Origin: a virus
Virus genome (UHGV): UHGV-0179801
Strand: one strand, 5' to 3'
DNA: 43,982 nt
In this document: positions 1,008 to 40,281 of the stretch, in pieces
How the letters are laid out: each line of letters starts with the position of its first letter
Position numbering within the stretch: the first letter of the stretch is position 1
Translations under genes and position numbers: made by a program
The notes under the pieces: generated by a model
What the model was told of the DNA's origin: nothing
The model's input: the letters and a program-made list of their open reading frames with translations, nothing else
The model's database searches: none

Positions 1008-1520
1008 TTAACCCCGGTACACGTTAAACGAGAAACCATTGTTAAGACCGCCGCACAGTAACGGGCGTAAGGCGTCGTCTGCGGCTGTAATAGCAGTTGT
1101 TGCTCCACTGCTGCCGTTGTTGAAGTAGGTAACGGTCACTGCACCCTCGACACGCTCGGTCTGCACGGAACGCCCATCAGTGTTAGCGCGAACATCAGTT
1201 CCAGCACCATATGTAGCGGCGGCGATTACCTGCGCAAGAATCACCTGTTTCGGGATGACATTGTTCGATACTGGGAAGCCATTCAACGTTACGCCGGCGC
1301 GTGGGTAAGCGAGAGACTGTTCAGCGGATACGCGACGACCGCACATCTGCGGTTCTGCAAGCCCGACATAAGTAGCACCGTTGCGCAGAGCTACTTCCGC
1401 GGCGGTATCGTCTTCTGGCAACTCCAGGCCATAATTAGCCGCTAACGCGCGGGCGTCAGCCAGACTAATGTAACTGTCGGCATTCGGTACGATTTCCCCT
1501 GTCTCCACGATTAGCGGCAT
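1008..1520 (-). CDS. head-tail adaptor/connector (gp6-like)
   Basis: 170 aa; N-terminus MPLIVETGEIVPNADSYISLADARALAANYG resembles gp6/DnaT_2-type adaptor N-termini; position after capsid genes. Confidence 0.55.
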   Translation of the reverse strand: MPLIVETGEIVPNADSYISLADARALAANYGLELPEDDTAAEVALRNGATYVGLAEPQMCGRRVSAEQSLAYPRAGVTLNGFPVSNNVIPKQVILAQVIAAATYGAGTDVRANTDGRSVQTERVEGAVTVTYFNNGSSGATTAITAADDALRPLLCGGLNNGFSFNVYRG

Positions 1521-1523
1521 AAA

Positions 1524-1703
1524 TTATTCCTCTGACTTACGGCGACGACGCTTAGTACCGCCACCGTTGTTGTGCGCTTCTTCGTTGTCCGGTTGTGTTG
1601 CAACCAGTTCTTCCGCTTCTACCGCACCGCGAACAGGCATCACCTGACCGTCAACAACATCAACGTGGGTGTACTTTTCGCGGATTACATAATTATCTGC
1701 CAT
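1524..1703 (-). CDS. small basic-tailed protein (59 aa)
   Basis: Hand-found ORF below track cutoff: ATG 1703 with AAGGAAAGG SD; MADNYVIREKY...GGGTKRRRRKSEE; TAA 1524. Confidence 0.5.
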   Translation of the reverse strand: MADNYVIREKYTHVDVVDGQVMPVRGAVEAEELVATQPDNEEAHNNGGGTKRRRRKSEE

Positions 1704-2100: not shown

Positions 2101-2125
2101 ATGAAAAGAGGGACCGAAGTCCCTC
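2101..2125 (-). terminator. intrinsic terminator after major capsid gene
   Basis: Minus strand GAGGGAC-TTCG-GTCCCTC followed by TTTTCATTT, 18 nt after capsid stop. Confidence 0.55.
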
Positions 2126-2142
2126 TCGATTATAGCTTAACC

Positions 2143-3194: not shown

Positions 3195-3896
3195 TTATTT
3201 CCTCAGGGCTTTAAGTTGCCGTTCAAATTCGGCAGGGTTCGATTTATACAGAGCTAAACGCTCCGCTTCACTCATGTCTTTAAACGCTGGTGCGGCCCCG
3301 CCGCCTTTGCTACCGGAAGCCCCGCCGCCGGAAGCTGCATTTGCTTTAATCAAATGCGAAAACGCTTTGTGTTCACGCAGATATTTGCGGAACTGTTCCG
3401 GGTCAGTCGTGATTACGTTACCGTCTGCGCTGACAAACTTAGTAACCACATCATCGCCTTCGAACTCAGTCTTAACGAACGGTGCAAGGATGTCCACTGC
3501 TTCCGGGGTGATAAAGTCACCTGCGAAAGAGCCTAACACCGCTTTACGTTCGCTACCGAGAATGCGCTCTGCCATTCTGGAGATGCGGCCATCTTTCTCG
3601 GCTAACACCGGGTCATACTGGCTACGAATCGTCTTTTCGAACTCGTCCATCTTACCAGCGGCTTTTAACGCCTCCTGGTGGGCACGCTGCCGTTCTTCTT
3701 CGGCCTCTTTTGCTTTACGAGCGGCTTCTTTCTTCTCCGCAAGTAATGCTTCCTGATTAGCCTTAAGCCCGGCAACTTCTTTCTCAATCAGCGCCTGAAC
3801 TTCTTCAGCGGTGAACATTTTCGGTGCGTCACCGCCGCCAGATTTATCTTCTGCTCCAGCTTCTTCCTGGAACGGATAACGTAAAAAACGATTCAT
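3195..3896 (-). CDS. scaffolding protein
   Basis: ORF 3195..3950 trimmed to ATG 3896; 233 aa, Ala/Glu/Lys-rich coiled coil (EALLAEKKEAARKAKEAEEERQRAHQEALKAAGK); immediately upstream of capsid gene. Confidence 0.7.
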   Translation of the reverse strand: MNRFLRYPFQEEAGAEDKSGGGDAPKMFTAEEVQALIEKEVAGLKANQEALLAEKKEAARKAKEAEEERQRAHQEALKAAGKMDEFEKTIRSQYDPVLAEKDGRISRMAERILGSERKAVLGSFAGDFITPEAVDILAPFVKTEFEGDDVVTKFVSADGNVITTDPEQFRKYLREHKAFSHLIKANAASGGGASGSKGGGAAPAFKDMSEAERLALYKSNPAEFERQLKALRK

Positions 3897-3978
3897 AGTC
3901 AGTATGTCCCCTGGACGTTGGAATCCGGGCCACCCGGATTTACATGTCAAGAATAAATTATTCCAACATGCAAGGCAA

Positions 3979-4242
3979 CTATTCCAGAATATTCCTCACA
4001 TAATCCTGCAACATGAACACTTTCAGTCTCAGTTGCCGTGCACATTCGGCATTCTGAACGTCGATAGCTAAATCCTCGTCCGCGTCGCTACTTGGCGGCG
4101 CCAGTTTGCACGGCGGCTGCATCATCGTCATATCCGGGGATGGAATTAGCGTTTGCGACGGCGCGGGACTTGAGCAGGACGCGAGCATCGTCGAAAGTGC
4201 ACACGCTGCGGCCAGGCGTTTTAATGTACTTAACGACTTCAC
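3979..4242 (-). CDS. o-spanin (Rz1-like outer-membrane lipoprotein)
   Basis: GTG 4242 with GAGGTG SD; signal + lipobox MLAS|C; Pro-rich; starts inside the i-spanin gene in another frame. Confidence 0.7.
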   Translation of the reverse strand: MKSLSTLKRLAAACALSTMLASCSSPAPSQTLIPSPDMTMMQPPCKLAPPSSDADEDLAIDVQNAECARQLRLKVFMLQDYVRNILE

Positions 4243-4474
4243 GGGTAATCACCTCTGATTTCGTCTTGCCTTCGTTGTCAGCGGCTGCGGCCTTTGATTC
4301 ATCCTGCTGCTGCCGTTGTGTTTTCTTTGCTAACTCGGTCTGTGCTTTCTGCTGTTGCTGCGAAACGAGATTCGCCCGGCCTTCGTTCCAGCCGCTGCGA
4401 TATTGGTAGATGCCGTGGGCGTAAGACAGGATGATGAAACATGCTCCTGCTACGACAGTTGCTTTAAGATTCAT
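4088..4474 (-). CDS. i-spanin (Rz-like)
   Basis: 128 aa; N-terminal TM (VVAGACFIILSYAHGIY), Gln/Lys-rich coiled coil; overlaps lipoprotein gene. Confidence 0.7.
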   Translation of the reverse strand: MNLKATVVAGACFIILSYAHGIYQYRSGWNEGRANLVSQQQQKAQTELAKKTQRQQQDESKAAAADNEGKTKSEVITREVVKYIKTPGRSVCTFDDARVLLKSRAVANANSIPGYDDDAAAVQTGAAK

Positions 4475-4498
4475 GTTTCTCCTTTCTCGATAAGTAAA

Positions 4499-4518
4499 GC
4501 CCCGCCATAAAGCGGGGC
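4499..4518 (-). terminator. hairpin (attenuator/terminator) 25 nt upstream of spanin start
   Basis: Minus strand GCCCCGC-TTTATG-GCGGGGC then CTTTACTTAT; imperfect U-tract. Confidence 0.4.
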
Positions 4519-4698
4519 GCTAGTCCTTATCATTTAAACATAGAAACGGCGTAATCTCAGTAAACCAGTTACTTTTTACACAAGCAATAGATTATGGCCC
4601 TTCCGAACGCGTCAGCGTAACTACACTCAGGACTTACGTCCCGCTCCGTTACCTGCCCGCGCCGCGGTCGCTTGTTCATACTTCACAAGCTCAGGTGG

Positions 4699-4727
4699 AG
4701 CTTAGCACATTTTTAGTGAAAAGTCAA
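4699..4727 (-). promoter_or_regulatory. candidate leftward promoter TTGACT-N17-TAAGCT
   Basis: -35 at 4727..4722, -10 at 4704..4699 (minus strand); abuts 16-bp palindrome; about 175-195 nt upstream of hairpin 4499..4518. Confidence 0.3.
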
Positions 4728-4741
4728 CTATTCGAATAGTT
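4726..4741. repeat. perfect 16-bp palindrome AACTATTCGAATAGTT
   Basis: Read directly; half-sites CTATT/AATAG are those of the promoter dyad but in swapped order; centre about -41.5 relative to the TSS predicted from 4699..4727. Confidence 0.8.
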
Positions 4742-4793
4742 TATTCCAAGATTTACAATTCGGTGGAATAACTGGGATACCTAACCAAATAGT

Positions 4794-4822
4794 TTGCACA
4801 CACCAATATAATAGGGTACTAT
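4794..4822 (+). promoter_or_regulatory. type-A promoter/operator cassette (TTGCAC-N17-TACTAT)
   Basis: TTGCACACACCAATATAATAGGGTACTAT; near-identical copies at 6601, 40223 and 18086(-); contains dyad AATAG-N4-CTATT. Confidence 0.6.
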
Positions 4823-4850
4823 TCATTACATCGAAACGAGGAGATGAAAA

Positions 4851-5024
4851 ATGTTCAAAGAAAAAGACATAATGCACGAAAACGGCAAATACTGGGTTCT
4901 AAATGATAAAGGAGTGTACTGCGTAATGATTTCCGGGTTTACCCACGCTAAAGCTGATAGTGCATACGCTAGTTTAGATTTAGCGATAGCCCGCTGTGAT
5001 TATCTGGCGAGTAGAGACGCATAA
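4851..5024 (+). CDS. small protein (57 aa), rightward island 1
   Basis: Hand-found ORF: AGGAGA SD, ATG 4851, MFKEKDIMHENGKYWVLNDKGVYCVMISGFTHAKADSAYASLDLAIARCDYLASRDA, TAA 5024; own promoter and terminator; AT-rich. Confidence 0.55.
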   Translation: MFKEKDIMHENGKYWVLNDKGVYCVMISGFTHAKADSAYASLDLAIARCDYLASRDA

Positions 5025-5027
5025 ACT

Positions 5028-5050
5028 AAGGCCCCGTAATGGGGCCTTTT
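5028..5050. terminator. bidirectional GC-hairpin terminator
   Basis: AAGGCCCC-GTAAT-GGGGCCTT + TTTT; between convergent genes 4851..5024(+) and 5052..5510(-). Confidence 0.7.
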
Positions 5051-5051
5051 A

Positions 5052-5510
5052 TCAATCTGGCTTAGTGACCTTCGCCGCCTTGCTTACCACCTCAACTCCA
5101 TCGGTATCAGTAACTTTAACGAAGTATTCGCCAGCTGCGTTAACCGACAGAGACAAAGCCTGTTCTGGTGCGTTAACCACTTCCTTACCGTCCTTGTACC
5201 AGGTCAGAGTATACGGCGCTTTACCCGCTTTAACTTCGACAGTGATAGTTGCGCTGCCGTCTGCCAGTTCGGCGTCCTGCGGTTGCACAGAGAAATACAC
5301 ATCGCCAGCATCAGCCAGATACGGAATCTCATAAAGCATACCCGCCGCCGGCAGCGCAATACCGGTTTTATCTGCAAACGGCATATCGTCTACGGGCGTA
5401 CCGAGTACACTTTCATCTTCAATAAATACCACGTTCTCGCCGGAGCCAGACACGCGGGCGTACTGGACTACGCGACGCGCGGGTACATCAGTTACTTTGA
5501 AAAAGCCCAT
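5052..5510 (-). CDS. Ig-like domain-containing virion protein
   Basis: 152 aa; C-terminal I-set Ig pattern ATITVEVKAGKAPYTLTWYKDGKEV...AGEYFVKVTD. Confidence 0.55.
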   Translation of the reverse strand: MGFFKVTDVPARRVVQYARVSGSGENVVFIEDESVLGTPVDDMPFADKTGIALPAAGMLYEIPYLADAGDVYFSVQPQDAELADGSATITVEVKAGKAPYTLTWYKDGKEVVNAPEQALSLSVNAAGEYFVKVTDTDGVEVVSKAAKVTKPD

Positions 5511-6556: not shown

Positions 6557-6600
6557 ATGCCCTCCTGTAGTATCGACAGTGTAACGCATAAAAATAATAT

Positions 6601-6629
6601 TTGCAGACACCAATATAATAGGGTACTAT
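6601..6629 (+). promoter_or_regulatory. type-A promoter/operator cassette (TTGCAG-N17-TACTAT)
   Basis: TTGCAGACACCAATATAATAGGGTACTAT followed by the same leader ...CGAAACGAGGAGATGA.AAATG as copy 4794. Confidence 0.6.
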
Positions 6630-6656
6630 TCAGTTATCGAAACGAGGAGATGAGAA

Positions 6657-7178
6657 ATGGTTACTACAGTAATTACTTTCCCTGCGTATGTAGGGGCGAA
6701 AATCTGCAGGGCGAAAAATGATGTGCGCTATTATTTGAACGCTTTTTACATAGACCCTGAAGGATTGATAGTTTCTACGGATGGTCACAGATTGTTCTGC
6801 GACAACGTGAAGACAAACGTCGAAACTGGAGTTCTAATAGACATCAAAGGGAGGGAGCCTTCTAAATTTAACTACGCGGAGGTAGACCACGACAACGGTA
6901 GTGTTTCTTTCTATGACGATAGTAGTGCGCTTGTATGTACACTTCCTATTGAAGTTGTAGACGGGAGATTTCCTTACTGGAGACGTGTGGCCGGCATTAC
7001 GCCGGGTTCAGTCGATAGCATAGGGTTCTCTCTGCGCTATTTGGCGGACGCGTACAAGATTTCTAAGGCATACAAAAATGAAATTGCCCGTTTCGATTTC
7101 CAGGACCAAACAAACGGATGCAAAATATCATTTTCAAACACTGCATTTATGGTGCTAATGCCAGCGCGATTTAAATAA
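6657..7178 (+). CDS. truncated DnaN (beta sliding clamp)-like protein, rightward island 2
   Basis: 173 aa; blocks DVRYYLN, TDGHRL, VDGRFPYWRRV, IGFSLRY, LMPARF match E. coli DnaN domain II and C-terminal half of domain III (from memory of DnaN). Confidence 0.8.
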   Translation: MVTTVITFPAYVGAKICRAKNDVRYYLNAFYIDPEGLIVSTDGHRLFCDNVKTNVETGVLIDIKGREPSKFNYAEVDHDNGSVSFYDDSSALVCTLPIEVVDGRFPYWRRVAGITPGSVDSIGFSLRYLADAYKISKAYKNEIARFDFQDQTNGCKISFSNTAFMVLMPARFK

Positions 7179-7182
7179 AACT

Positions 7183-7206
7183 AAGGCCCCGAAAGGGGCC
7201 TTTTCT
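7183..7206. terminator. bidirectional GC-hairpin terminator
   Basis: AAGGCCCC-GAAA-GGGGCCTT + TTTC; between 6657..7178(+) and portal stop 7207(-). Confidence 0.7.
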
Positions 7207-8679
7207 TTACTCCTGTTGCTGCTGCGCCGACTGCGGAATCTCTCCTGCTACCTGAGTAACAGCACCCAATGGCAACGGTGCATCTTCGATAGCGTTCTGA
7301 ATATCCTCGTCGGTCCAGTCGGTCACACCTGCCTTACGCAACGCCGCATAGTAAGCGGTAGCCGGTAGCAGGCCCGCGTTAATGTCCGCCATCCACTGAG
7401 CGCGGTCCTGGGCGGTCATCGGTTGCAGGAAGAACTCCATATTCAGTTTGAACTCAATCTCTGTGCCTTCACGCAGCCCAAGCATCGCCGCTACCCAGCG
7501 CAACGCATCTGTATACGCCATGCTTACATTACGTGCGATTGTCGCCATGACGGACGTATCCGCACCACGTTGCAGGCGGGCTGATTCGGCGGTGATTTGC
7601 TGCGTCGGGGTGATAAGCTGTGCGCCAATCTGAATTGCCTGATTCTCTTTATCCAGCATGTTCTGTTTGGCGAGGTTGTTCTCTCCCGCCTGAACCAGAA
7701 ACGCATTGCCGCCGTAGCCGATGTTATGGCCTGAACGAGACCCCATGCGCACGCCGTGTGGGTTAGCTTCTTTCCACTGTTCCATGCTCATGTTCTCACC
7801 TGGCGCAATGAACAGAGTGGGCTGGCCTACAACGAAGCTGGACTCCTCATTGTCCGCGCTGTTGCGGAAATGTCCGATATTAAGCTCAGCCAACGGCAGC
7901 AAAGGTGCATCATCAATGGTTGCGTCGTTGTTGCTCGCCCCAATGAACGTGAACGGTATTTTACCGCGCAGCTGTTCTCCGAGTTCCGGGAAGATTTCGA
8001 TTACGTCACCCTGAGCACCACCTTCGGCGTCGAAGCGGTAAATGCGCTGGCGGTAGCGCCCGTCAATCAAATCGAGAACGCGGTATTGTTCGCCGAATTT
8101 TGTTTCGAACTCCGCGCCCGGTTCTGAGTATTCCCACACCTCACGCAGCACGACCGTTGTCACACGGTTAACAGAACCGATGCGTGTCAGTCGCCAGTTG
8201 ATGATGTTCTCTGCGGTATAGAATGCGATTACCGGGTTTAATAACCCCGCGTTCTGCTCTGCCGCCGTTGCCGCGGCTGTCTCTGGGGCGTCCACCAGCA
8301 ACCCGCCGCGGCCAACCGAGTCAATCTCCATCAGCGTGTCCTGCGCGTGCTGCCACAACCCGACACCAGAACCGTCGGCATTACGTAACAGGTACTCCAG
8401 TTCAGGCGGGATAATTTGCTCGGGGTCTTTACGCATCACTGACCCCACCATCCCGGCCAGAGTACGTTTGGTGAAGTTGTAGCAGATAGCGCCGTTCTCG
8501 TATTCTTCCTGGCGCTGCGCAGCGTAGGTAGGCTCCGGCTCGTTCTTCCCGACGTTGCGAAGATAGCGGATAAGGTCGCCTTCCAGCGCGTGGCGTACCT
8601 TCTGCCATTTATCGAAGTGATGCAGCCATTCCCGGTGTTTTGTTTTAACACCCTGATTCTGACCGTTCATAGTTAACAT
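7207..8679 (-). CDS. portal protein
   Basis: 490 aa, AAGAGGA SD before ATG 8679; immediately downstream of terminase large subunit; size typical. Confidence 0.8.
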   Translation of the reverse strand: MLTMNGQNQGVKTKHREWLHHFDKWQKVRHALEGDLIRYLRNVGKNEPEPTYAAQRQEEYENGAICYNFTKRTLAGMVGSVMRKDPEQIIPPELEYLLRNADGSGVGLWQHAQDTLMEIDSVGRGGLLVDAPETAAATAAEQNAGLLNPVIAFYTAENIINWRLTRIGSVNRVTTVVLREVWEYSEPGAEFETKFGEQYRVLDLIDGRYRQRIYRFDAEGGAQGDVIEIFPELGEQLRGKIPFTFIGASNNDATIDDAPLLPLAELNIGHFRNSADNEESSFVVGQPTLFIAPGENMSMEQWKEANPHGVRMGSRSGHNIGYGGNAFLVQAGENNLAKQNMLDKENQAIQIGAQLITPTQQITAESARLQRGADTSVMATIARNVSMAYTDALRWVAAMLGLREGTEIEFKLNMEFFLQPMTAQDRAQWMADINAGLLPATAYYAALRKAGVTDWTDEDIQNAIEDAPLPLGAVTQVAGEIPQSAQQQQE

Positions 8680-13618: not shown

Positions 13619-14125
13619 TCAACCTTTCACCGCGCGCCCAATAGCCTCAGCCTCTTGCCACGATTTACCGTCGAACAGCGCCAGACGTCCGGCAACACGT
13701 CGGCGTAGGCCAAGCACAGGCTCAAGTTTACCGGTTTTCGGGTTACGCTGGTTGATGAACTGACTCATCTTGTGCCGTAAGGTAGGGATGTCTCCCTGCC
13801 GTAGTGCCTTACCGGTACCGGTCGTCGCCGCGATAACACCAGTTCCGGCGTTAAACACCAGGTCGACAACGGCATCAAACTGAGCCTGGGTCAGTGAGGG
13901 ATGTGCGACTTCATCAACTGCTTTCACCGCCCACTGCATATCGCGGTTCAGTAACAGCAGCCCCTGGCCCTCGGTAATCTTCTGCCCTTCATACACATCC
14001 GGCCCGGTATGACCCCAGCCTATAGTCCAGTATTTCTCGTTCTTTGTGGCTTTGTATGCAGTTCCGCGAAACTTCTCCCACGCTTTCTTGAACTGCAACC
14101 CATTATCTGAAATGTTTCGAGACAC
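13619..14125 (-). CDS. endolysin, GH24 (T4/lambda-type lysozyme)
   Basis: ORF 13619..14176; likely GTG 14125 with GGAGGA SD 7 nt upstream; WEKFRGTAYKATKNEKYWTIGWGHTG matches E..x..TIGxGH lysozyme signature. Confidence 0.8.
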   Translation of the reverse strand: MSRNISDNGLQFKKAWEKFRGTAYKATKNEKYWTIGWGHTGPDVYEGQKITEGQGLLLLNRDMQWAVKAVDEVAHPSLTQAQFDAVVDLVFNAGTGVIAATTGTGKALRQGDIPTLRHKMSQFINQRNPKTGKLEPVLGLRRRVAGRLALFDGKSWQEAEAIGRAVKG

Positions 14126-14375
14126 GCTTATGTCCTCCGTATGACAGCCACGCCTGGCGAATTTGACGCAGCGCAACTAATGTGATTAACGTCTCGGGCA
14201 ACGTCGGCGACATGCTGCCCTGTAACAGGTGGATGCATCCGGCGGCGCAGACGATAGCGGTCAGGATATAGAGCACCCGGCCAAATATCCCGTCGTCCAC
14301 ACTCGGATGATACACATTAAACAGCGATGTGCCTCCGATTGCCAGCATACCGCCGAACCAGAATAACTCATTCAT
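14103..14375 (-). CDS. second lysis-cassette membrane protein (holin/antiholin-like, 2 TM)
   Basis: ORF 14103..14555 trimmed to ATG 14375 (GAGGAGG SD); MNELFWFGGMLAIGGTSLF...ILTAIVCAAGCIHLL; overlaps both neighbours. Confidence 0.55.
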   Translation of the reverse strand: MNELFWFGGMLAIGGTSLFNVYHPSVDDGIFGRVLYILTAIVCAAGCIHLLQGSMSPTLPETLITLVALRQIRQAWLSYGGHKRVSKHFR

Positions 14376-14676
14376 CCGGGCCTCCTCGACGTGCAATGTA
14401 TTCTCCGGCGACGATGCCAGAAAGGCGGGAATAAATAGGCATCCAGAGAACGGCAATGATAAAGCCCAGGCCCGCGATTTCACGGTCGCCCGTGATGCCG
14501 AACCATTGAGCCGCGAGAGGTGCGCCAAATACGGCGCAGGTGAAGCCGGTTGCAATAAAGCAGAATCCGTCGATAGGGCCAGAAATAACGGACTTATGTT
14601 GCCTTAGTCCGATGACCCCACCGGCGAGTGCGGCAGCGAGAAGCCAGCCTGTCACTGTTTCAGTAAATTTATCCAA
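14368..14676 (-). CDS. holin (3 predicted TM)
   Basis: 102 aa; TTG 14676 with GGAGGA SD; three hydrophobic segments, charged C-terminus; upstream of endolysin. Confidence 0.65.
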   Translation of the reverse strand: MDKFTETVTGWLLAAALAGGVIGLRQHKSVISGPIDGFCFIATGFTCAVFGAPLAAQWFGITGDREIAGLGFIIAVLWMPIYSRLSGIVAGEYIARRGGPDE

Positions 14677-18485: not shown

Positions 18486-18517
18486 CGATTTTGTTAACTG
18501 ATAATGAGGGTTTGAGA

Positions 18518-18688
18518 ATGACACAGAATGAAGTAGCCGAGCGTATCGGTGTTACTCGTCGCACGCTGAATAACTGGTTAAAGAGTGGGAAGTTCCCTGA
18601 TTGTTGTATTCGCATTATGGGCCGCCGTCAGCCAGGTACGTTTGACCGGGAGAAAGTGGAAGCGTGGATTAAGGAGAACGTGAAATGA
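18518..18688 (+). CDS. small HTH DNA-binding protein (56 aa, AlpA/excisionase-like fold)
   Basis: ORF 18491..18688 trimmed to ATG 18518 (GAGGG SD); MTQNEVAERIGVTRRTLNNWLKSGKFP. Confidence 0.65.
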   Translation: MTQNEVAERIGVTRRTLNNWLKSGKFPDCCIRIMGRRQPGTFDREKVEAWIKENVK

Positions 18689-21555: not shown

Positions 21556-21584
21556 AAAAAAAATAAAGGGGCGTTAAGCCCCTT
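21553..21584 (-). terminator. intrinsic terminator of the Cro-like gene
   Basis: Minus strand AAGGGGC-TTAAC-GCCCCTT followed by TTTATTTTTTTTTT; 5' arm overlaps the last codons. Confidence 0.75.
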
Positions 21585-21789
21585 CACCAAACGCCAGCCA
21601 CTTTGCGTCTACTTGCAGCACTTCCGCCAGCTTGAACAGCGTCGCTGGACGTACGTCCTGAGTTACCCCAAGTGCCAGCTGGTTAATCGCGCCCTGGGAA
21701 ACACCGGCCAGGACAGCCAGACGGCGCTGGGAGATGCCGAGTTCTTTGCGGCGTTGTTCTACACGGATGCCTAGTTCAGATGGTTGCAT
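21574..21789 (-). CDS. XRE/Cro-CI-type HTH transcriptional regulator (71 aa)
   Basis: RRKELGISQRRLAVLAGVSQGAINQLALG is a classic HTH_3 pattern; only minus-strand gene within the rightward arm. Confidence 0.8.
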   Translation of the reverse strand: MQPSELGIRVEQRRKELGISQRRLAVLAGVSQGAINQLALGVTQDVRPATLFKLAEVLQVDAKWLAFGEGA

Positions 21790-21820
21790 GTCAATTACTC
21801 CTTAGTTAGTTGATATGTGA

Positions 21821-35553: not shown

Positions 35554-35909
35554 AATTCAATCTCCGTGTACGTGTCTCTGAGGTCTGCCAGCCTGTCAAG
35601 CCGTACCTGACGTGACGCAAGTTCACAATGACTCACCATCCCGTCGAAGTAAACTCCTGCGTGCCACACGATACGGCCCCCGCGGCGATACCCCATAAGC
35701 ACCGCACAAAAGTTTTCAGGCTTATCAATTTTTGTAAGCCCCTTCGTGTCACGGTGGCCTTCGTCAAACGCTTCGTTAATTGCCGTTGGGCTTGTAACGT
35801 CGAACGCCGGGGTTTCTAACCCGGCATCCGCGCGGACAATGCGCACATGGTGCCAGCAATTACGTTTGCGAAAGTCGTAAGGTATTCCCGTGTAGTCGTT
35901 AATATTCAT
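35544..35909 (-). CDS. tail tip assembly protein, NlpC/P60 (lambda K-like)
   Basis: 121 aa; Cys in RKRNCWHH and His in VWHAGVY. Confidence 0.6.
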   Translation of the reverse strand: MNINDYTGIPYDFRKRNCWHHVRIVRADAGLETPAFDVTSPTAINEAFDEGHRDTKGLTKIDKPENFCAVLMGYRRGGRIVWHAGVYFDGMVSHCELASRQVRLDRLADLRDTYTEIEFWR

Positions 35910-40115: not shown

Positions 40116-40222
40116 TCTTTGATCCTTTGGTTAAGAGGTTACAGGTTAAGGGAAATGCGCCAGACGGGAACCACCCGCTTTTCGTGTGCGACACTAGGCG
40201 CAAACTTATTCTAGCACACTAC

Positions 40223-40251
40223 TTGCACACCCCAATATAATAGGGTACTAT
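40223..40251 (+). promoter_or_regulatory. type-A promoter/operator cassette (TTGCAC-N17-TACTAT)
   Basis: TTGCACACCCCAATATAATAGGGTACTAT; opposite strand offers TTGGTG-N16-TATTAT towards chaperone gene. Confidence 0.6.
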
Positions 40252-40281
40252 TCACTTACACCAACAATGGAGGAGTTTAAA

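Follow-up and report, generated by a model that had tools for sequence, protein, structure and literature searches.

In the 43,982-nt virus genome UHGV-0179801 (the window, by which we mean this whole stretch of DNA), the genes for an Rz/Rz1-type pair of spanins are preceded by a non-coding gap of 376 bp (4475..4850), and on balance we lean towards reading its part 4475..4790 as the promoter-operator and 5' leader of a separate transcription unit, in which the spanins come first and which runs on into the scaffold and capsid genes. In such a unit, the σ70 form of the host RNA polymerase would start near G4692 from an extended -10 promoter (TTGACT-N14-TGC-TAAGCT), and a putative DNA-binding protein would modulate access through GAATA/TATTC pentamers, arranged as a dyad near -48 and as half-sites that reach to about -88; a second predicted promoter, R2, upstream of the scaffold gene has the same dyad across its spacer and -10 element. 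The transcript would carry, in this order, a small 5' hairpin, a 65-nt covarying hairpin, an invariant motif and a two-tier stem-loop that ends 3-4 nt before the ribosome-binding site (RBS), and by analogy with known leaders it may act in cis as a 5' untranslated region (UTR) that sets the stability or processing of the spanin mRNA and its translated amount. The top of the last stem-loop together with UUUACUUAU would probably, in Kagunavirus alone, terminate a fraction of the transcripts, and attenuation of this kind would hold spanin output low relative to the scaffold and the capsid, which have a downstream promoter of their own.

The window is the genome of a Kagunavirus (Guernseyvirinae), a phage of Escherichia coli. 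The 1.2 kb round the region match 189 phage records, mostly Escherichia and Salmonella siphoviruses of ~41-45 kb, many of them named Kagunavirus, and the best of these matches reach ~94-96% identity; a homologue of the window i-spanin is carried by several hundred genomes. The gene layout was read by comparison with the annotated, 95%-identical relative Bas76, which places the structural genes on the minus strand and the replication genes on the plus strand; the minus strand also holds an early/lysis block with two holins and the endolysin (13619..14676), and short plus-strand inserts break the minus-strand structural run at three places. For the comparisons below, 48 loci were gathered via the i-spanin from IMG/VR, and Jerseyvirus-, GRNsp27- and Shemara-type loci were added afterwards; we refer to Kagunavirus-, Jerseyvirus-, GRNsp27- and Shemara-type sequences as K, J, G and S types, and to single loci by L numbers. 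A search for tRNA and tmRNA genes found none. In the literature that we searched, gene regulation in Guernseyvirinae is known only from motif predictions and from one gene-level RNA-seq study (phage K1B4). The elements on which the argument turns are as follows, MFE standing for minimum free energy.

4699..4727, minus strand: predicted σ70-type promoter, TnGAyT-N14-TGnTAnnCT, invariant in K, J and G types apart from a drifting spacer

4734..4747, minus strand: conserved dyad GGAATAA-A-CTATTC, centre 4740 (about -48), in K, J and G types

4765..4780, minus strand: distal half-site TTATTCC (4771..4765) and a degenerate second copy GTATCCC (TATTCC in relatives)

4726..4741, no strand: perfect 16-bp palindrome AACTATTCGAATAGTT, in K type only

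4670..4690, minus strand: 5'-proximal hairpin P1, GCUUGU...ACAAGC, from predicted folds, beginning ~3 nt after the predicted start

4603..4667, minus strand: long irregular hairpin of 65 nt with helices P2-P4, from a covariance model

4596..4607, minus strand: invariant motif UUCGGAAGGGCC, which lies across the 3' end of the long hairpin; its UUCGG closes P2 and its AAGGGCC is predicted to be unpaired

4489..4531, minus strand: two-tier stem-loop adjoining the spanin Shine-Dalgarno sequence, from MFE folds of K, J, G and S types

3897..3995, minus strand: R2 promoter region, conserved in K, J, G and S types

A preliminary description of the window, made from its letters, had proposed a leftward promoter TTGACT-N17-TAAGCT at 4727..4699, and the relatives bear this element out. 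On the minus strand, the -35 hexamer TTGACT (4727..4722) matches the consensus at five of six positions and is followed by a 17-nt spacer and the -10 hexamer TAAGCT (4704..4699); the spacer ends in TGC (4707..4705), a TGn extended -10 element that had been overlooked. The combination of TGn before TAnnnT with a -35 at 17 ± 1 bp is that of a σ70 extended -10 promoter, for which activity is predicted from the sequence. The promoter reads TTGACT...TGC-TAAGCT in K type, TAGACT...TGy-TACGCT in J type and TGGACT...TGA-TAACCT in G type, so that the -35, TGn, the -10 and their spacing are invariant in all three clades, while the remaining spacer sequence is unrelated between them. As the i-spanins of the compared clades are 56-66% identical to that of the window, a core kept at fixed spacing round a drifting spacer is the pattern expected of a working promoter. 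In relatives without the plus-strand insert, the upstream Hoc-like gene closes in a GC hairpin and a T run, the conserved block follows bases later, and a fresh start of transcription is thus needed there; in the window, the upstream neighbour is transcribed in the opposite direction and is closed by a bidirectional terminator. Conservation is strong throughout the region and extends over ~60 nt upstream of the -35. It is this conservation, not any one consensus match, that marks the region as real, and we regard the leftward promoter as well supported on these comparative grounds. With the predicted start site at G4692, the leader would measure 175 nt to the beginning and 194 nt to the end of the GC hairpin before the spanin genes.

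In K, J and G types, a dyad with the consensus GGAATAA-N-yTATTC is centred 12 nt before the spanin -35 (GGAATAC-T-TTATTC in J type, GGAATAA-A-TTATTCC in G type), and all three clades carry TATTCC-AG-TTATTCC, with one or two copies of TTATTCC, 16-17 nt upstream of it. Across whole K and J genomes, GAATA-N3-TATTC occurs only upstream of the spanin and scaffold genes; GRNsp27 has it at both of these sites and once more inside the o-spanin coding start, and the whole genome of a Klebsiella phage relative has no copy. An extra near-match to the dyad at 1516..1530 was set aside, as it coincides with a stop/start gene junction (AGGAATAATTTATG) and is probably due to chance. A likeness of the dyad to the ArgR or TyrR box was considered by eye and rejected on spacing.

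The preliminary description had pointed to the overlapping palindrome AACTATTCGAATAGTT, whose centre falls at -41.5 if transcription starts at G4692, the place of a class-II activator. The palindrome is indeed composed of the half-sites of the early-promoter dyad, GAATAG/CTATTC, in swapped order, with a spacing that differs by promoter class. It is, however, absent from J and G types, which keep the overlapping dyad near -48, and this speaks against it as the key operator; neither can the class-II position be upheld, with a palindrome confined to K type, a -35 near the consensus and the conserved dyad near -48. AACTATTCGAATAGTT is the sole palindrome of at least 14 bp in the window, but it does not by itself exceed chance, as a perfect 16-bp palindrome arises in 53% of first-order Markov simulations. 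Under the same kind of model palindromes are depleted in the window, with one of at least 14 bp found and ~3.2 expected.

The early-promoter dyad itself, AATAG-N4-CTATT, has nine sites in the window (4810, 6617, 16879, 17322, 18057, 21865, 24432, 28028 and 40239) and covers the -10 or the spacer of the strong σ70-like promoters at 4794, 6601, 16875, 18055, 21863, 24430 and 40222. A further promoter of the early repeat family, at 21818, serves a 71-aa Xre-type gene and has a degenerate copy of the dyad that departs from the exact pattern. Five sites are present in Jerseyvirus AG11 and none in GRNsp27 or in the Klebsiella relative. The motif was reported earlier in a relative by PHIRE and is probably the operator of an early repressor. 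The two pentamers stand 6 nt apart at the early promoters, 3 nt apart in the spanin/scaffold dyad and 0 nt apart in the Kagunavirus palindrome, a difference by promoter class that may reflect more than one protein or mode of binding. In the Klebsiella phage VLCpiS11a (L075), repeats of CTCGCAAAATTTTGCGAG occupy the equivalent place upstream of the spanins and one other control region; a different repeated palindrome in this relative is the pattern expected of co-evolving regulator-operator pairs. The TTGCGAG/CTCGCAA repeats of VLCpiS11a, including the 18-bp palindrome CTCGCAAAATTTTGCGAG, lie at 35684..35905 and at 5036..5290 (in a 550-bp intergenic region); 12 of the 14 copies fall into these two clusters, with ~10 expected genome-wide for both strand-specific 7-mers.

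The dyad recurs at R2, which reads GGAATATTCT-GGAATAG-TTGCCT-N17-TATTCT, with the -35 at 3978..3973 and the -10 at 3955..3950. Here GGAATAATTTATTC (3964..3951), the same GGAATAA-N-TTATTC dyad as at the spanin promoter, lies over the spacer and the -10. All four types (K, J, G and S) keep the R2 hexamers and vary in the first part of the spacer; 9 nt downstream of the -10, a 5' hairpin (3940..3922) covaries between the versions AAUCCGGG, ACACCGGG and AGCCGGG. The 82-nt gap between the o-spanin and scaffold genes that holds these elements is the most conserved segment of the neighbourhood, with 98-100% identity in nearly all K loci (96% in L023), and it is 85-89% identical in J-type loci, above the flanking genes. 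In Shemara, a terminator and a reverse-strand gene follow the o-spanin and the R2 block stays with the scaffold gene, from which we conclude that it must hold the scaffold/capsid promoter. With a promoter of their own, these genes are independent of read-through from the spanin leader, and the rationale for a lambda-like switch is largely removed.

Downstream of the spanin promoter, the ~190-nt leader is non-coding, yet conserved at least as well as the neighbouring genes. The block of promoter and leader is 93-98% identical among most K-type loci (89% in L029), compared with 85-91% for the upstream gene, 91-96% in most loci for the i-spanin and 86-93% for the capsid gene. The predicted fold comprises four elements, namely the 5'-proximal hairpin, the 65-nt irregular hairpin, the motif UUCGGAAGGGCC and the 3' stem-loop, and the fold of the complete leader has z = -2.25 against shuffles. 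In place of P1, inspection by eye finds a different hairpin in J type (ACGCU/AGCGU) and in G type (UUCGU/ACGAA), where MFE folds of the whole leader pair otherwise. Nine K-type variants of the 65-nt hairpin were used to build a covariance model, which detects the J-type copies (E ~1e-5) and yields an alignment of 15 sequences in which 92.5% of the cells pair and nine of the 22 pairs change on both sides; controls with slid partners gave 26-38% paired cells and 0-2 double-sided pairs. The G and S leaders hold other GC-rich hairpins. A further candidate helix, UAAUCU/AGAUUA (4593..4588 with 4556..4551), was rejected, its third position showing all four bases in relatives with no compensation.

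UUCGGAAGGGCC is identical in most K- and J-type leaders, with single-base variants in L006, L029, L037, L042 and L050, and CGGAAGGG is kept in G type. No complementary partner of the motif, antisense or intramolecular, was found in the phage genome. The whole window has no match in Rfam 15 at gathering thresholds, and a permissive Rfam search of 3880..4860 gave hits at chance level only (at most 17.5 bits, E of at least 1.2). A scan for the motif in one genome per species of 185,579 bacterial and archaeal species returned a contaminant Jerseyvirus contig and two chance matches only. This contig (L080) is a stand-alone piece of 738 bp in a Taishania pollutisoli assembly that runs from the end of a Jerseyvirus Hoc-like gene through the leader to the beginning of the spanin gene, and contamination is its most likely origin.

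The open reading frames (ORFs) annotated inside the leader (4558..4668 of the window, minus strand), of 36 aa in Bas76 (Bas76_0007) and 63 aa in AG11 (AG11_07), were considered as protein genes and rejected, as they bear no coding signature. The distinct substitutions in the 36-aa ORF are 12 non-synonymous and three synonymous, the counts by codon position are 8:4:3 with the third position least variable, the frame is shifted in six of 29 distinct K-type leaders, and the start codon is lost in J types. The small ORFs annotated in the leader in public records are probably mis-annotations.

At the 3' end of the leader, the preliminary description had seen a lambda tR'-like terminator. The hairpin GCCCCGCTTTATGGCGGGGC (4518..4499), followed by TTTACTTATC, was also found by a terminator scan and lies 24 nt before the spanin ATG (4474). 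When the last 67-70 nt before the AUG were folded for each clade, this hairpin emerged as the upper tier of a larger stem-loop (z = -3.9 against shuffles), in the lower helix of which GAUAAG (4531..4526) pairs with CUUAUC (4494..4489). In K type, the U-rich tail UUUACUUAUC is predicted to pair with upstream GAUAAG..UAG. The lower helix of J type, UAUACG/CGUAUA, differs from that of K type by two compensatory double changes, and the upper helix exists in the compensatory versions GCCCCGC/GCGGGGC, GCCCTGC/GCAGGGC, GCCCGGC/GCCGGGC and GCCCGAC/GTCGGGC; G and S types have a ~17-bp stem-loop followed by GAGGGGUUGGGAG, without a U tract. The classical terminator score d falls from +17 in K type to -3 and -17 in J type and -66 in G and S types. 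The hairpin of the window is picked out by both the simple scan and the d score; its U tract is predicted to be paired and is not conserved. Since the stem-loop is found in all clades and the U tract is not, the conserved property is a stable stem-loop ending 3-4 nt before the RBS and not termination; with its tail paired in a covarying lower helix and d at -3 to -66 in the sister clades, a tR'-like terminator is not supported. Partial termination at the Kagunavirus hairpin is plausible, but a terminator annotation for the whole subfamily is not warranted.

These data can be set against three other accounts. In phage lambda, late control consists of the promoter PR', the qut site, a 194-nt 6S leader, the terminator tR' and the antiterminator Q. 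A module of the same kind, with a constitutive promoter that makes a ~190-nt RNA and a phage antiterminator needed for read-through into spanins, scaffold and capsid, was the interpretation of the preliminary description, and we now consider it very doubtful. The geometry of K type does fit, with its good -35, extended -10, leader of 175-194 nt and GC hairpin followed by UUUACUUAU; at d = +17, the hairpin is a plausible intrinsic terminator that equals the best of the genome, and further terminator-like hairpins lie downstream, for example at 2127..2106 after the capsid gene. A -10-like hexamer also follows the -10 (TAAGCT-ccacc-TGAGCT at -1..+5 in K type, TACGCT-nnn-TACGCT in J type), which recalls the σ-dependent pause at which Q is loaded; this repeat is missing in G type, and because it overlaps the 5' arm of P1 it carries little weight. 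Against the module stand the sister clades, which keep the stem-loop but not the U tract (d of -3 to -17 in J type and -66 in G and S types), the pairing of the hairpin tail in the covarying lower helix, and the conserved promoter of scaffold and capsid, which makes read-through unnecessary for them. No Q, N-like or other antiterminator family was found in a Pfam scan of 20 early ORFs, which included every unassigned early ORF of at least 100 aa in the ORF scan, and the PHROG-based annotation of Bas76 lists two regulators only and no antiterminator. RfaH finds no foothold either, as the minus strand of the leader has no match to the ops sequence GGCGGTAGnnTG at up to two mismatches and the genome-wide count is that of chance. 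A need for antitermination is not supported, and the likeness to PR'-tR' holds in part at most: the promoter, leader and hairpin stand, the palindrome is not the conserved operator, the hairpin is not a conserved terminator, and of an antiterminator there is no sign. Two differences in layout may be added: the operon here opens with the spanins only, holin and endolysin lying 9 kb off, and the main structural genes are served by a promoter of their own a short way downstream, although both systems share a promoter, a leader of ~190 nt, a GC hairpin, an operon that opens with lysis genes and, in two clades here, a -10-like hexamer after the -10.

The leader could instead be a product in its own right, either a small RNA acting in trans or an RNA like put of HK022 that acts in cis to make the polymerase resistant to terminators without any protein; we judge this unlikely. 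It would agree with leader conservation above that of neighbouring genes, with the covarying helices and the partly single-stranded invariant motif, with the Kagunavirus order of promoter, RNA and terminator-like end, and with an RNA that matches no Rfam family and a motif confined to the phage subfamily in the scan of 185,579 species; no antiterminator protein was found, yet several hairpins break the late strand. A put-type RNA has two adjacent stem-loops downstream of a promoter, and the leader is predicted to contain stacked stem-loops. The same leader has no defined 3' end outside Kagunavirus and no complementary target in the phage genome, its 5' domain is undetectable in G and S types, and a conserved, structured 5' UTR accounts more simply for the same data. 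Whether 4499..4692 might represent a new class of regulatory RNA exclusive to Guernseyvirinae, effecting protein-independent read-through in cis or released as a discrete small RNA, is a related proposal that we hold as doubtful. Least probable to our mind is a region with no promoter at all, in which the spanins are co-transcribed with the upstream head genes and the structures are processing sites of RNase III or RNase E. Long imperfect hairpins do resemble RNase III substrates, the bidirectional terminator 5031..5050 is weak on the minus strand (d ~-31), and in Dhillonvirus the spanin gene overlaps the head-morphogenesis gene, so that co-transcription is the ancestral or an alternative state. 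However, the -35, TGn and -10 are conserved at fixed spacing round a variable spacer, and a processing site does not call for the conservation of ~60 nt upstream of the -35; relatives have a terminator directly upstream, and read-through in the window would have to cross an oppositely transcribed gene.

Several points tell against our own preference for a regulated promoter with a structured 5' UTR. The -10 matches the consensus at three of six positions, for which reason a simple promoter scan does not list the spanin promoter; the start site, the end of the transcript and the regulator are predictions, and the RNA-seq of K1B4, a Kagunavirus, gives timing at gene level. The covariance alignment was fitted to the structure and is therefore good evidence rather than proof, and the model fails to detect G or S types, which limits the long hairpin to two clades. 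For the stability and translation role of the leader we argue from analogy only. The dyad occupies an activator-like position at the spanin promoter and a repressor-like position at the scaffold promoter, which makes no single simple logic. Neither of the two helix-turn-helix proteins encoded in the window, which were considered as its binder, follows the distribution of the dyad cleanly. GRNsp27 keeps the dyad, yet no homologue of the 65-aa HTH_17 protein (18491..18688, plus strand) is detectable there; conversely, all four genomes encode the 71-aa Xre-type protein (21574..21789, minus strand) at 39-52% identity, including that of the Klebsiella phage, which lacks the dyad.

With the regulated promoter and structured leader as our preferred reading, two further known arrangements invite comparison. 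Dual-function phage regulators that switch promoters are exemplified by p4 of phi29 and by the operator arrays of CI and Cro in lambda. Here too, GAATA/TATTC half-sites occur at several promoters in differing positions relative to the core, over the -10 or spacer at the early promoters and R2 and upstream of the -35 at the spanin promoter; unlike in those systems, the binding protein is putative and the half-site spacing differs by promoter class. Stem-loops that stabilise 5' ends and leaders processed by RNase III are known from the ompA 5' hairpin and the T7 intercistronic sites. The present region resembles these in that a hairpin lies a few bases from the predicted 5' end at each promoter and RBSs are directly preceded by long imperfect stem-loops, but the length and conservation of its leader go well beyond what a simple stabiliser requires, and the leader carries an invariant motif.

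The spanins served by this region are the following.

4088..4474, minus strand: i-spanin gene, 128 aa, Rz-like, of the Jersey spanin family (phrog_2536, E 5e-55), with an N-terminal transmembrane segment

3979..4242, minus strand: o-spanin gene, 87 aa (phrog_5672 and phrog_1267), with the lipobox LASC in its translation

The i-spanin with its N-terminal transmembrane segment, the o-spanin with its lipobox and the overlap of their genes by 155 bp constitute a two-component spanin of the Rz/Rz1 type in the 'overlapped' architecture; the assignments of both spanins, the holin, the endolysin and the scaffold are borne out by PHROG profiles. From the spanin start to the endolysin gene the distance is ~9.1 kb. 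The preliminary description was right in its coordinates for the pair and in setting it apart from holin and endolysin; it was right likewise in placing the palindrome, promoter, leader and hairpin, and in noting a long leader upstream of the spanins, which contains a conserved hairpin. As a headline, the displaced spanins give way, because the family as a whole has its spanins between the head-morphogenesis and scaffold genes, a trait that was annotated and in print beforehand. The order of head morphogenesis, an optional Hoc-like gene, spanins, scaffold and capsid is annotated in Kagunavirus, Jerseyvirus, Cornellvirus and an unclassified Klebsiella guernseyvirine, and Dhillonvirus has the same order with no gap, its homologous spanin gene overlapping the end of the head-morphogenesis gene. 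A genome paper states that spanins and holin-endolysin genes lie far apart (PMC9825357), and the spanins of the Jersey family, with K1G, K1H and K1ind1-3 in the family list, were described as 'overlapped' (Kongari et al., 2018; PMC6139136). At the protein level, the pair of the window, with the same protein family and the same 155-bp overlap, shows no difference from that description, in which the upstream control region is not treated (PMC6139136).

Upstream of the spanin promoter, the gap is shared with a divergent element.

4794..5050, plus strand: divergent insert with the early-type promoter TTGCAC-N17-TACTAT (4794..4822), the gene of a 57-aa protein (4851..5024) and a bidirectional terminator (5031..5050)

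Its elements belong to the repeat families D2, D5 and D20, and the 57-aa product matches phrog_20712. What lies between the Hoc-like gene and the spanin promoter varies among relatives (L001, L002, L007 and others), many of which have nothing in this slot; where the window encodes the 57-aa protein, phage Ivi encodes a 173-aa 'beta clamp domain' protein and Bas76 one of 67 aa. The window has a 173-aa protein in a different slot (6657..7178), with a match to the PHROG family called RusA-like resolvase and a weaker one to a polymerase processivity factor family. The three plus-strand inserts carry a near-identical cassette of promoter and 5' UTR (4791..4853, 6598..6659 and 40220..40258), the first two have in common the 24-nt stretch ATCGAAACGAGGAGATGArAAATG, and all three inserts end in one and the same bidirectional terminator, AAACTAAGGCCCC-N4-GGGGCCTTTT; the whole looks like a portable expression cassette. 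The insert at 6613..7212, between the portal and head-morphogenesis genes, leaves 43 nt before the head-morphogenesis start, which is no room for a minus-strand promoter, so that late transcription must run across the insert in antisense and past the bidirectional terminator 7183..7202. Just after the third insert, an extended -10-like site, TGTGCTAGAAT (40208..40218, minus strand), is followed by a GC-rich leader of ~90 nt and the tail assembly chaperone gene, which makes it a possible restart promoter for the tail genes. Mosaic breakpoints coincide exactly with both control regions. L036, L037 and L050 join a K-type leader to a J-like spanin, which makes the spanin region a mosaic boundary as well, and in L007, L016, L021, L023, L028 and L033 a 73%-identical scaffold follows right after the scaffold promoter, again as a mosaic switch.

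Taken together, the region is most likely an autonomous, regulated extended -10 promoter with a long structured 5' UTR that tunes the spanin mRNA, to which Kagunavirus may add attenuation. Guernseyvirinae such as Kagunavirus, Jerseyvirus and Cornellvirus belong to the phages isolated most often for therapy and food safety against E. coli and Salmonella, and for these phages the analysis offers an anatomy of two conserved promoters, one for the spanins and one for scaffold and capsid, with a shared dyad that points to a regulator, and of a structured leader RNA under stronger constraint than the surrounding genes. Should the leader turn out to act as a regulatory RNA, hundreds of sequenced phages would share a control element that is compact and portable; were the leader to represent a new RNA class, it would couple the timing of spanins and head genes to a host or phage factor that binds the leader.

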